Source: a virus (Duplodnaviria; Heunggongvirae; Uroviricota; Caudoviricetes). From it: 6,262 nucleotides of DNA. Location of the stretch: the IMG/VR virus record IMGVR_UViG_2602041905_000007, one strand, 5' to 3'. Positions 2,418 through 6,262 of the stretch are shown here, in pieces. Position 1 is the stretch's first letter. Each line of letters opens with the position of its first letter. The notes beneath the pieces were generated by a model. That model searched no databases, had not been told where the DNA came from, and worked only from the letters and a program-made list of their open reading frames with translations. Position numbers and translations under genes: made by a program.

Positions 2418-4006
2418 AACGAACGCCTGTCCTGATTGATGTGAACGGCGTTCCGCTTCGTGAGAGTCTCAGCTACAACGGGGGCGGTGCAGGATTTGGC
2501 GGGCAAATGGCTGAGTGGTTGCCACCGGCGCAGAGTGCCGATGCGGCCCTGCTGCCCGCGTTGCGTCTGGGGAATGCCCGGGCAGATGATCTGGTGCGCA
2601 ATAACGGAATAGCGGCTAATGCGGTGGCTCTGCATAAGGATCACATTGTCGGGCATATGTTTCTGATCAGCTACCGTCCGAACTGGCGCTGGCTGGGGAT
2701 GCGGGAGACCGCAGCAAAAAGCTTTGTCGATGAGGTGGAGGCGGCCTGGTCGGAATACGCCGAAGGGATGTTTGGCGAGATCGACGTGGAAGGAAAACGC
2801 ACGTTCACGGAATTTATCCGTGAAGGTGTGGGCGTTCATGCGTTTAACGGCGAAATCTTTGTGCAGCCGGTCTGGGATACGGAAACCACGCAGTTATTCC
2901 GTACGCGTTTTAAAGCCGTGAGTCCGAAACGGGTGGACACGCCTGGACACGGTATGGGGAACCGTTTTCTGCGGGCCGGTGTGGAGGTCGATCGATATGG
3001 CCGTGCCGTCGCGTACCATATCTGTGAGGATGATTTTCCGTTCTCTGGTAGTGGACGATGGGAACGGATCCCGCGTGAACTTCCCACCGGGCGTCCGGCC
3101 ATGCTGCATATTTTCGAGCCGGTGGAGGACGGGCAGACCCGTGGGGCTAATCAGTTTTACAGCGTCACGGAACGGCTGAAGATGCTCGATTCCCTGCAGG
3201 CAACACAGCTTCAGTCGGCCATAGTGAAGGCGATGTATGCAGCGACGATTGAAAGTGAACTTGATACCGAAAAGGCCTTTGAATATATCGCCGGCGCGCC
3301 ACAGGAGCAGAAGGATAATCCGCTTATTAATATTCTGGAGAAGTTTTCCAGCTGGTATGACACGAATAACGTGACACTGGGCGGTGTCAAAATTCCGCAC
3401 CTTTTCCCTGGTGATGATCTGAAACTACAGACTGCGCAGGATTCAGACAATGGATTTTCTGCGCTTGAACAGGCGCTGCTGCGGTATATCGCCGCCGGTC
3501 TTGGCGTTTCCTACGAACAGTTGTCCCGTGATTACTCGAAGGTCAGTTACTCAAGTGCCCGCGCCTCCGCCAATGAGTCGTGGCGCTATTTTATGGGGCG
3601 GCGAAAATTTATTGCGGCCCGGCTGGCCACGCAGATGTTTTCCTGCTGGCTGGAAGAGGCACTTCTTCGGGGGATTATTCGTCCGCCACGGGCACGTTTT
3701 GATTTTTATCAGGCGCGATCAGCCTGGTCACGGGCAGAGTGGATTGGTGCCGGAAGAATGGCCATTGACGGGCTCAAGGAAGTCCAGGAATCAGTGATGC
3801 GCATTGAGGCCGGACTGAGCACGTATGAGAAAGAGCTGGCGCTGATGGGCGAGGATTATCAGGACATTTTCCGCCAGCAGGTCAGGGAATCTGCTGAGCG
3901 GCAAAAAGCCGGACTCTCACGTCCGGTGTGGATAGAGCAGGCGTATCAGCAGCAGATAGCGGAGAGTCGTAGGCCGGAAGAGGAGACAACACCACGTGAG
4001 ACGTAA
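2414..4006 (+). CDS. B: Portal protein (lambda gpB-like), complete second copy, 530 aa
   Basis: ATG at 2414 in the ATGA overlap with the gpW-like stop; continuous ORF to TAA at 4004-4006. The translation matches lambda portal along its length (…FEPVEDGQTRGAN.FYSV…LQSAIVKAMYAATIESELDT…LLRYIAAGLGVSYEQLSR…GRMAIDGLKEVQE…EAGLSTYEKE…). The track's start at 2384 is an upstream GTG inside the gpW-like fragment. Confidence 0.9.
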   Translation: MKRTPVLIDVNGVPLRESLSYNGGGAGFGGQMAEWLPPAQSADAALLPALRLGNARADDLVRNNGIAANAVALHKDHIVGHMFLISYRPNWRWLGMRETAAKSFVDEVEAAWSEYAEGMFGEIDVEGKRTFTEFIREGVGVHAFNGEIFVQPVWDTETTQLFRTRFKAVSPKRVDTPGHGMGNRFLRAGVEVDRYGRAVAYHICEDDFPFSGSGRWERIPRELPTGRPAMLHIFEPVEDGQTRGANQFYSVTERLKMLDSLQATQLQSAIVKAMYAATIESELDTEKAFEYIAGAPQEQKDNPLINILEKFSSWYDTNNVTLGGVKIPHLFPGDDLKLQTAQDSDNGFSALEQALLRYIAAGLGVSYEQLSRDYSKVSYSSARASANESWRYFMGRRKFIAARLATQMFSCWLEEALLRGIIRPPRARFDFYQARSAWSRAEWIGAGRMAIDGLKEVQESVMRIEAGLSTYEKELALMGEDYQDIFRQQVRESAERQKAGLSRPVWIEQAYQQQIAESRRPEEETTPRET

Positions 4007-5401
4007 TCTTTCACACATTATTGCCGCAGCATTCAATGAACCGCTGCTTCTGGAGCCCGCCTATGCGCGGGTTTTCTTTTGCGCGCTCGGGCGCGAGATG
4101 GGGGCAGCAAGTCTTTCGGTACCACAACAGCAGGTACAGTTTGATGCNNNNNNNNNNTGCACCGGCTGGGTGGTATGCGGCCATTTTCCGGAATGACAGG
4201 CTATGACGGCATTGTCGCCTGTCTTCAGCAGGCAATGGCGGATAGCCAGGTGCGGGGCGTACTGCTGGACATTGACAGTCCGGGCGGGCAGGCCGCCGGC
4301 GCGTTTGACTGCGCTGACATGATTTACCGCCTCCGTCAGCAGAAGCCGGTCTGGGCACTGTGCAATGACACGGCCTGTTCTGCAGCCATGCTGCTGGCGT
4401 CGGCCTGCTCCCGACGGCTGGTTACCCAGACATCCCGTATCGGCTCCATTGGCGTGATGATGAGCCATGTCAGCTATGCCGGTCATCTGGCGCAGGCCGG
4501 TGTGGATATCACGCTGATTTACTCAGGGGCGCACAAGGTGGATGGCAATCAGTTTGAAGCGTTGCCGGCAGAGGTTCGCCAGGACATGCAGCAGCGGATT
4601 GATGCGGCGCGCCGGATGTTTGCCGAAAAAGTGGCGATGTTTACCGGTCTGTCTGTTGATGCCGTCACGGGAACAGAGGCTGCCGTTTTTGAAGGTCAGT
4701 CCGGCATTGAGGCCGGGCTGGCGGATGAATTAATCAATGCGTCGGATGCCATCAGTGTGATGGCCACGGCGCTGAACAGTAATGTCAGAGGAGGCACTAT
4801 GCCGCAATTAACTGCAACGGAAGCCGCCGCGCAGGAGAACCAGCGAGTGATGGGGATCCTGACATGCCAGGAAGCGAAAGGACGTGAACAGCTTGCCACG
4901 ATGCTGGCAGGACAACAGGGCATGAGCGTTGAACAGGCCCGGGCGATTCTGGCCGCGGCGGCACCGCAGCAGCCGGTGGCATCCACGCAGAGTGAAGCCG
5001 ATCGCATTATGGTGTGTGAAGAAGCGAACGGTCGTGAACAACTGGCGGCAACGCTGGCGGCGATGCCGGAGATGACGGTGGAAAAAGCCCGCCCGATCCT
5101 GGCTGCTTCACCGCAGGCGGATGCCGGACCATCACTCCGTGATCAGATCATGGCACTGGATGAGGCAAAAGGGGCTGAGGCGCAGGCTGAACAGCTGGCT
5201 GCCTGCCCGGGAATGACAGTGGAGAGCGCCCGGGCTGTGCTGGCTGCGGGATCAGGTAAGGCAGAACCGGTCTCTGCATCCACAACCGCCATGTTTGAAC
5301 ATTTCATGGCGAACCATTCACCGGCAGCGGTACAGGGTGGCGTGGCACAGACGTCAGCAGACGGTGATGCGGACGTGAAAATGCTCATGGCCATGCCATG
5401 A
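3996..5401 (+). CDS. C: Head maturation protease / scaffold fusion (lambda gpC-like, S49 SppA/ClpP-like peptidase family), interrupted by the N-run at 4148-4157
   Basis: GTG at 3996 (GAGGAG at 3979-3984) overlapping the portal stop; N-terminus MRRNLSHIIAAAFNEPLLLEPAYARVFFCAL matches the lambda gpC N-terminus. After the gap, frame 2 is open to TGA at 5399-5401 and reads …FSGMTGYDGIVACLQQA…VLLDIDSPGG…GAFDCADMIYRLRQQKPVWALCNDTACSAAMLLASACSRRLVTQTSRIGSIGVMM…ITLIYSGAHKVDGN…, matching the gpC protease core. The two flanks are in different frames because the gap length is a placeholder. Confidence 0.85.
4148..4157. other. Assembly gap 3 (10 N) inside the gpC-like gene; no flanking duplication
   Basis: Run of 10 N. 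The flanking coding sequence is in different frames (left codons start at positions divisible by 3, right at positions leaving remainder 2), and too few residues lie between the conserved FFCAL and SGMTGY blocks. Confidence 0.85.
4799..5401 (+). CDS. nu3: Nested in-frame scaffolding protein (lambda Nu3-like), translated from an internal start in the gpC-like frame
   Basis: ATG at 4799 is in the gpC-like frame and is preceded by a strong Shine-Dalgarno AGAGGAGG at 4787-4794. It sits at the equivalent position to the lambda Nu3 start (…GG(R/T)M… just before the scaffold domain). Product MPQLTATEAAAQENQRVMGILTCQEAKGREQLA… is Ala/Gln/Glu-rich, as expected for a scaffold. Confidence 0.55.
   Translation: MPQLTATEAAAQENQRVMGILTCQEAKGREQLATMLAGQQGMSVEQARAILAAAAPQQPVASTQSEADRIMVCEEANGREQLAATLAAMPEMTVEKARPILAASPQADAGPSLRDQIMALDEAKGAEAQAEQLAACPGMTVESARAVLAAGSGKAEPVSASTTAMFEHFMANHSPAAVQGGVAQTSADGDADVKMLMAMP
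4835..5265 (+). repeat. Three diverged tandem repeats of about 45-50 codons within the gpC/Nu3-like scaffold domain
   Basis: Protein-level repeats: ENQRVMGILTCQEAKGREQLATMLAGQQGMSVEQARAILAAAAPQ / EADRIMVCEEANGREQLAATLAAMPEMTVEKARPILAASPQ / LRDQIMALDEAKGAEAQAEQLAACPGMTVESARAVLAAGSG. The DNA copies are clearly diverged, so this is not an assembly artefact. Confidence 0.7.
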
Positions 5402-5421
5402 AGTCAGTGCTGACCATCAAT

Positions 5422-5427
5422 AGGAGG
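5422..5427 (+). promoter_or_regulatory. Shine-Dalgarno site for the gpD-like gene
   Basis: AGGAGG located 10 nt upstream of the ATG at 5438. Confidence 0.7.
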
Positions 5428-5437
5428 TTTTTACAAT

Positions 5438-5785
5438 ATGGTGACGAAAACCATCACTGAACAGCGTGCGGAAGTACGTATTTTTGCCGGTAATGATCCG
5501 GCTCATACCGCCACAGGCAGCAGCGGGATTTCCTCGCCAACACCGGCACTGACGCCCCTGATGCTGGATGAAGCCACCGGGAAACTGGTGGTCTGGGACG
5601 GACAGAAAGCCGGTAGTGCGGTTGGCATACTGGTACTGCCGCTTGAAGGCACAGAGACGGCGCTGACGTATTACAAGTCGGGAACCTTTGCGACGGAGGC
5701 AATCCACTGGCCTGAAAGTGTGGATGAACACAAAAAGGCCAACGCCTTTGCTGGCAGTGCCCTGAGTCACGCGGCGCTGCCGTAA
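5438..5785 (+). CDS. D: Head decoration protein (lambda gpD-like), 115 aa
   Basis: ATG at 5438 with AGGAGG upstream, TAA at 5783-5785. The translation …GNDPAHTATGSSGISSPTPALTPLMLDEATGKLVVWDGQKAGSAVGILV…TYYKSGTF…WPE…K.AFAGSA… matches lambda gpD motifs (SDPAHTAT, MTPLMLD, KLVAWDG, AAVGIL, FYKSGTF, AFAGTA). Confidence 0.88.
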   Translation: MVTKTITEQRAEVRIFAGNDPAHTATGSSGISSPTPALTPLMLDEATGKLVVWDGQKAGSAVGILVLPLEGTETALTYYKSGTFATEAIHWPESVDEHKKANAFAGSALSHAALP

Positions 5786-5792
5786 CACGTTA

Positions 5793-5814
5793 TCAGGCCA
5801 CCGCGGTGGCCTGA
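5793..5814. promoter_or_regulatory. Perfect 22-bp palindrome in the gpD-gpE intergenic region (possible RNA hairpin or protein-binding site)
   Basis: tcaggccaccgcggtggcctga equals its own reverse complement; it lies 8 nt after the gpD-like stop and 28 nt before the gpE-like start. No strong U-tract follows. Confidence 0.5.
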
Positions 5815-5842
5815 CTGATTTCTGAATGAAAGGAACTGATTT

Positions 5843-6262
5843 ATGGGATTGTTTACGACCCGCCAGTTACTCGGTTATACCGAACAAAAAGTTAAATTTC
5901 GTGCGCTGTTTCTGGAGCTGTTTTTCCGCCGTACGGTGAATTTCCATACCGAAGAGGTGATGCTGGACAAAATTACCGGAAAAACGCCGGTGGCGGCCTA
6001 TGTCTCCCCGGTTGTTGAAGGAAAAGTGCTGCGTCATCGTGGTGGTGAAACCCGCGTGTTGCGTCCGGGCTACGTCAAGCCGAAACACGAATTTAATTAC
6101 CAGCAGGCGGTTGAGCGCCTTCCTGGTGAAGATCCATCTCAACTGAATGATCCGGCTTACCGCCGTCTGCGTATCATTACCGATAACCTCAAACAGGAAG
6201 AGCACGCGATTGTCCAGGTGGAAGAAATGCAGGCGGTAAATGCTGTGTTGTATGGCAAATAC
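5843..6262 (+). CDS. E: Major capsid protein (lambda gpE-like), N-terminal 140 codons; continues beyond the window
   Basis: ATG at 5843 with AAGGA 7 nt upstream; open to the window end. The translation MGLFTTRQLLGYTEQKVKFRALFLELFFRR…AAYVSPVVEGKVLRHRGGE…PGYVKPKHEFN…DPAYRRLRII…EEHAIVQVEEMQAVNAVLYGKY closely parallels the lambda gpE N-terminus. Confidence 0.9.
   Translation, partial: MGLFTTRQLLGYTEQKVKFRALFLELFFRRTVNFHTEEVMLDKITGKTPVAAYVSPVVEGKVLRHRGGETRVLRPGYVKPKHEFNYQQAVERLPGEDPSQLNDPAYRRLRIITDNLKQEEHAIVQVEEMQAVNAVLYGKY

Follow-up and report, generated by a model that had tools for sequence, protein, structure and literature searches.

Three tandem copies of one scaffold unit in the nested protease/scaffold genes of a phage-21-type lambdoid prophage

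The stretch of DNA analysed here (6,262 nucleotides; hereafter the window) carries head genes in the order portal, protease/scaffold, D-like decoration protein and E-type major capsid protein, as read from its open reading frames (ORFs) and from the annotation of phage 21. Over 1227 nt (window 4175-5401) it is 99.9% identical, at full length, to two phage 21 records, M81255.1, entitled "Bacteriophage 21 head gene operon", and OL657228.1, the complete genome of Escherichia phage 21. About 17-18 further E. coli phage records match the same interval at 94-99.9% identity. By these matches, the source of the window is a phage-21-type lambdoid E. coli prophage.

Gene 5 encodes a gpC-type protease/scaffold protein, named "head-tail preconnector gp5" in M81255 and "capsid protease/scaffolding protein" in OL657228. 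In the window it is split into two parts (Table 1), because a run of N stands in for 110 nt that are absent. The remainder of the gene forms an open frame of 408 aa (4175-5401), in which the Pfam family Peptidase_S49 is found with an E-value of 9.8e-35 (120 bits against a cut-off of 24.9). The gene 5 product also matches phrog_53, head maturation protease, with an E-value of 5e-110, and NCBIfam SppA_dom matches phage 21 gp5, yet under its curated cut-off. For the scaffold part no NCBIfam model was found; the scaffolding families phrog_8399 and phrog_8940 gave three matches each, and tblastn also reaches lambda nu3. The first-pass annotation, which took this ORF for a gpC homologue with a Nu3-like C-terminus, was thus right. 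Gene 6 has a putative in-frame nested start and a separate ribosome binding site, which M81255 and OL657228 both annotate. Its product is 200 aa long, the size that had been proposed for the nested scaffold, with a mass of 20.5 kDa, a pI of 4.6 and an alanine content of 23%.

Table 1. Features of genes 5 and 6 in window coordinates
Feature	Position	Strand	Remarks
Gene 5, N-terminal 50 codons (gpC-type protease/scaffold)	3996-4147	+	ORF 3996-4196 starts MRRNLSHIIAAAFNEPLLLEPAYARVFF, the phage 21 gp5 N-terminus
N run (10 N)	4148-4157		replaces 110 nt of gene 5 (M81255 4724-4833); breaks the frame
Rest of gene 5 (S49 protease and shared scaffold C-terminus)	4158-5401	+	99.9% to M81255 and OL657228
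Peptidase_S49 (ClpP/SppA-like) domain	4331-4774	+	Pfam PF01343, residues 53-200 of the 408-aa ORF
Shine-Dalgarno sequence of nested gene 6	4788-4794 (AGGAGG 4789-4794)	+	annotated RBS in M81255 and OL657228
Gene 6, putative nested scaffolding protein (Nu3 homologue)	4799-5401	+	ATG at 4799, in the gene 5 frame; 200 aa
Unit 1 (U1)	4835-4969	+	gp6 aa 13-57; includes Tri1 box 4866-4969; orthologue of lambda's one unit, by tree and insertion
Unit 2 (U2)	4994-5116	+	gp6 aa 66-106; includes Tri box 5006-5116
Unit 3 (U3)	5135-5260	+	gp6 aa 113-154; includes Tri3 box 5147-5260
C-terminal tail	5261-5398	+	one predicted helix (TAMFEHFMANH; residues 160-173); ends ...KMLMAMP

Compared with genes 5 and 6 of phage 21, the window shares the gene, its nested start and all three repeat regions; it differs in the N run that interrupts gene 5 and in one nucleotide, which gives Phe in the window and Tyr in phage 21 in ...VAM[F/Y]TGLSV. 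The Phe codon lies at window ~4640, and the Phe variant is also present in a database protein (P0100). On the opposite strand within gene 6, OL657228 lists two 'CII binding sites' (ttgynnnnnnttgy), at 2130-2143 and 2364-2377, which correspond to roughly 4804-4817 and 5038-5051 of the window, one of them inside unit 2. Both look like bare pattern matches.

The region downstream of the nested start is confirmed to contain three tandem, diverged copies of one unit, placed within the frame that gp5 and gp6 have in common. The unit is ~40 residues long, with the consensus xxDRILAxxEAKGRExLAxxLAAxPGMTVEQAxxILAAAP, and local alignments of the copies yield 23/38, 19/36 and 21/36 identical residues (53-61% at the amino acid level). 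The unit-versus-unit alignment scores lie 12-17 SD above those of shuffled sequences (2000 shuffles each), BLASTP of the part containing U1 against the remainder of the protein returned E-values of 5e-12 and 1e-6, and an HMM built from the three units found three full-length matches in phage 21 gp5 (81-85 bits). These results bear out the first-pass description of three consecutive diverged units in the C-terminal part, and its span of 4835-5265 is accurate as well. Two DNA-level repeat finders run on the window detected none of the units, one of them returning short scraps and the other nothing, because the copies share 51-59% nucleotide identity and the repeat is visible at the protein level only.

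Since the window is itself a patchwork, an assembly origin of the triplication has to be weighed. The window is made up of four segments, corresponding to M81255 1682-2658, 2202-3524, 2897-4723 and 4834-6938, with three joins of 10 N each (978-987, 2311-2320 and 4148-4157). The overlap is 457 nt between segments 1 and 2, where it appears as a 'tandem repeat' with a period of 467 and 95% identity, and 628 nt between segments 2 and 3; a gap of 110 nt separates segments 3 and 4. Identity to phage 21 is ~97.7% for segments 1-2 and ~99.9% for segments 3-4. The composition of the window suggests that contigs of different but related prophage copies were scaffolded together, and the duplicated terminase and portal ORFs are artefacts of the overlapping, N-joined segments. 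Attributing the three units to the same cause would be in keeping with these joins and duplicated overlaps elsewhere in the window, but the probability of this is negligible and the reading is refuted by three observations. All three units lie within the last, continuous segment (4158-6262, 99.95% identical to M81255), where the N runs do not affect them; their DNA identity to one another is only 51-59%; and the same sequence recurs in independent records, namely M81255, OL657228, the ~17-18 further phage entries and 1870 complete genomes of E. coli.

The triplication is already known, and what we describe is the rediscovery of an annotated feature of phage 21; this statement rests on GenBank record M81255. 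Its gene 6 contains three repeat_region features, Tri1 box (5542-5645), Tri box (5682-5792) and Tri3 box (5823-5936), each with the note "function unknown; putative". With an offset of -676 the boxes fall at the window positions given in Table 1, and they translate to the three units. The Tri boxes have been in GenBank since the early 1990s, and we found no discussion of them in the open-access literature searched.

Lambda gpC/Nu3 has the same architecture as the phage 21 proteins, with the same head-gene order, a homologous S49 domain and a nested in-frame start behind AGGAGG. Its scaffold part, however, has one unit after a 48-residue low-complexity leader, whereas that of phage 21 has three units after a leader of 12 residues. 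The unit HMM finds exactly one match in lambda gpC (residues 357-400, 53 bits), in agreement with the first-pass annotation, by which lambda carries the unit only once. From the homologous starts, the nested product is 131 aa (13.4 kDa) in lambda and 200 aa (20.5 kDa) in phage 21, and the 69 additional residues of gp6 go with two more units and their linkers. The lambda homologue of the gene 6 start is the ATG at 5342, behind AGGAGG, which gives the 131-aa product; the nu3 gene of the lambda RefSeq record is instead annotated as 201 aa from 5132, within the protease domain (NC_001416 5132-5737; L003:833-1438). After the last unit, the tail motifs TAMFEHFM ... KMLMAMP of phage 21 and TALDRLMQGAP ... 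LLNTPV of lambda appear to correspond, a match read by eye, as automatic alignment does not pair the motifs.

A profile built from 30 diverse units and run against 1.84 billion cluster representatives recovered 1256 proteins at E <= 1e-3. Among the best 150 matches, which should contain all proteins with at least two strong units, a single unit was counted in 138, two units in 8 and three units in 3; judging by the counts from these best 150, the unit is nearly always single-copy across the 1256 clusters. Its long carriers are S49 proteases of ~430-530 aa, in which the unit is positioned a median of 51 residues (typically 40-60) from the C-terminus, and the other carriers are stand-alone ORFs of ~120-165 aa. 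Based on these profile matches, the unit is the most widely conserved element within the scaffold part. Duplications of it have arisen independently in distant lineages (P0141, P0102, P0130 and P0136). Two further database proteins are fusions, one of tail tape-measure-like sequence to gpC (P0133, 844 aa) and one of a portal to the gpC C-terminus (P0120, 439 aa); these are probably cloning-vector products or misassemblies in public data.

Of the 5426 complete E. coli genomes, 1870 (34%) carry the three-unit allele, O157:H7 strains included, and in 1864 of them its length is unchanged. A four-unit allele (P0026/L004) occurs in 106 of the 5426 genomes. In the copy from E. coli GCA_032727965.1 (L004:1-1043), units 2-4 are mutually 82-90% identical, and this near-identity indicates a recent amplification. 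Rare two-unit alleles (P0022, P0018 and P0016) either carry a U1/U2 hybrid or lack U2. In the complete genome of E. coli WP3-W18-ESBL-08 (L008:98-1546), half of U2 has been lost in frame, leaving a 482-aa protease with 2.5 units. Such deletion variants are rare, and the prophages that host them may be defective.

In a neighbour-joining tree of units taken from 13 proteins, U1 of the enterobacterial multi-unit proteins falls together with the unit of lambda; a second group holds U2 and U3. The U1 units and the lambda unit also have a common three-residue insertion (R-[VI]-M-G-I-L). On this grouping and the insertion, U1 is the orthologue of the single unit of lambda. U2 and U3 of phage 21 each pair with U2 and U3, respectively, of proteins whose overall identity is only 50-65% and some of which come from Salmonella; the triplication is therefore older than the split of these lineages. 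The duplication had been regarded as fairly old because the DNA copies differ substantially, and old it is: the nearest neighbours of each unit are its counterparts in more diverged relatives. In comparisons of three E. coli alleles (three allele pairs), pN/pS is 0.04-0.27 in each unit, which indicates that each of the three is under purifying selection and that all three copies are maintained as protein. Synonymous divergence in gene 6 is strongly mosaic between E. coli alleles: in the interval 5135-5398, compared with L006 and L007, pS is ~0.46-0.52 in U3 and 0.03-0.06 in the adjoining tail. This mosaicism indicates recombination breakpoints inside gene 6.

It had also been suggested that an expanded scaffold domain could alter procapsid size. 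This idea is not supported. In phage 21, with three units, in lambda, with one, and in a four-unit prophage, the major capsid protein is 342, 341 and 342 aa long, respectively, and that of phage 21 is 62% identical to lambda E and 82% identical to that of the four-unit prophage in full-length alignments with at most one gap. The genome sizes of cos phages overlap too, 42.9-54.4 kb for three-unit and about 42-52 kb for one-unit phages. Because the capsid proteins align end to end and the genome sizes overlap, a change in capsid size is unlikely.

A constant capsid protein alongside a varying unit number could mean that the extra copies are neutral, a redundancy or spacer that arose through unequal recombination and is tolerated in a disposable, loosely structured scaffold. 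This explanation would accommodate one to four copies among close relatives whose capsid proteins are equal in length and align over their whole extent, the complete E. coli genome with half of U2 deleted in frame, the alleles with a U1/U2 hybrid or no U2, and the recent amplification seen in the near-identical copies of the four-unit allele. It is harder to reconcile with purifying selection on all three units, with a three-unit order conserved among relatives just 50-65% identical, with the unchanged length in 1864 complete E. coli genomes, and with the rarity of deletion variants that may sit in defective prophages. We consider it improbable, and the weaker of two rivals to the explanation favoured below.

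AlphaFold predicts each unit to be a separate three-helix mini-domain with a pLDDT of about 80, which is moderate, the model having been built from shallow alignments (20-30 sequences). The short linkers between units, rich in Pro, Ala and Gln, are predicted to be disordered, and the C-terminal tail is of low confidence (pLDDT 43-63). When the entire 200-aa model was compared with the PDB by Foldseek, no significant match emerged (best E = 3), as expected for domains whose relative orientation is undefined. Tandem three-helix binding domains such as those of staphylococcal protein A, and UBA/CUE-like domains, match at structural Z < 5 and 2-20% sequence identity; this likeness is a generic fold resemblance and does not argue for common descent.

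We also considered whether a helix-hairpin-helix motif with non-specific DNA binding makes up the second half of each unit. There is a weak match to Pfam HHH (PF00633) in U3 only (E = 0.069, 13.5 bits against a cut-off of 24 bits), weak profile matches (E about 1.2) lead to the C-terminal repeat domains of NusA, which we take to be helix-hairpin-helix domains, and RuvA is among the structural matches. However, all the Pfam, PDB-profile and structural matches are below threshold, and the top RuvA matches are to domain III, which binds RuvB, rather than to the helix-hairpin-helix domain. In addition, gp6 is acidic (pI 4.6), and during lambda assembly degradation removes the scaffold before the DNA goes into the head. 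This identity, which we regard as extremely improbable, was rejected.

A closer functional parallel is provided by other phage scaffolds. In P22, phi29, SPP1 and 80alpha, the scaffold binds the coat through helical or helix-turn-helix motifs in its C-terminal part (PMC11565965). The helix-turn-helix at the C-terminus of the P22 scaffold, like the helical C-termini of the other three, resembles the unit in being a small helical module close to the C-terminal end of a largely flexible scaffold. The likeness is one of functional analogy only, as no similarity in sequence or fold could be detected between the P22 coat-binding domain and the unit. The unit further differs from the P22 domain in that it has three helices instead of two, is repeated, is followed by a 46-residue tail and is shared with the protease.

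On balance, we think it probable that the unit is an interaction module that holds the scaffold and the protease in the assembling shell by binding the capsid protein and/or scaffold, and that the three copies make this interaction multivalent while T=7 is kept. From its conservation, distribution and predicted fold, from the reported interactions of lambda Nu3 with itself, C and E (PMC3224144) and from the coat-binding motifs of the scaffolds of P22, phi29, SPP1 and 80alpha, we infer the binding function as follows. The units would bind the lambda-E-type capsid protein, further scaffold molecules or both, prior to degradation of the scaffold by the protease. The protease gp5 may be held in the shell in the same way as the scaffold gp6, since it has the same C-terminus. 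With three copies the scaffold of phage 21 would be multivalent, the T=7 head remaining unaltered. Certain observations count against this explanation. The title of a 2011 paper by Medina et al. calls lambda Nu3 'intrinsically disordered', which is at odds with a folded mini-domain. The third copy may not be essential, because natural alleles with 2 or 2.5 units exist. Moreover, the C-terminal tail, not the unit, could be the capsid-binding element.

This last point leads to the main rival, according to which the units serve scaffold self-association or the recruitment of portal or protease, and the conserved tail (TAMFEHFM ... KMLMAMP) binds the capsid protein. Lambda Nu3 has been reported to interact with itself, C, B and E (two-hybrid) (PMC3224144), and the first three of these interactions count in favour of this rival. 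The tail likewise has points in its favour: a similar one, compared by eye, follows the last unit in both lambda and phage 21, with a predicted helix; across the three E. coli alleles it has diverged less than any other part (pS about 0.03-0.06); and in other phages it is the extreme C-terminus of the scaffold that binds coat (PMC11565965). Yet the tail is modelled with low confidence, and the recovery of 1256 clusters was built on the unit and not on the tail. We regard this alternative as possible but less likely than the favoured explanation.

A broader version of the favoured reading, which we put forward only tentatively, is that the unit is a general capsid-binding or scaffold cross-linking module of all lambda-E-type systems and that its copy number acts as a 'valency dial', tuning stoichiometry or fidelity with T=7 unchanged. 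The copy numbers that can be cited for it are one in lambda, three in phage 21, four in another E. coli prophage lineage and two, independently, in distant lineages. If this were true, the natural alleles with 1, 2, 2.5, 3 and 4 units, each accompanied by a capsid protein of unchanged length, would constitute a ready-made series for studying scaffold valency in procapsid assembly.

The triplication itself matters little, being an annotated feature of a classical phage that is very common in E. coli, and the three-unit scaffold is not a new kind of system. What is added here is, first, that the repeated unit is a discrete, widely conserved module, predicted to fold into three helices, which occurs in 1256 clusters and nearly always singly. 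Second, the number of copies has risen repeatedly and even now ranges from 1 to 4 in enterobacterial prophages, with capsid proteins that are constant in length and align end to end. Third, few head-gene alleles of E. coli are commoner than the three-unit form, which is present in 34% of complete genomes. The copy-number series offers a simple genetic handle on how a lambda-type scaffold engages the shell.
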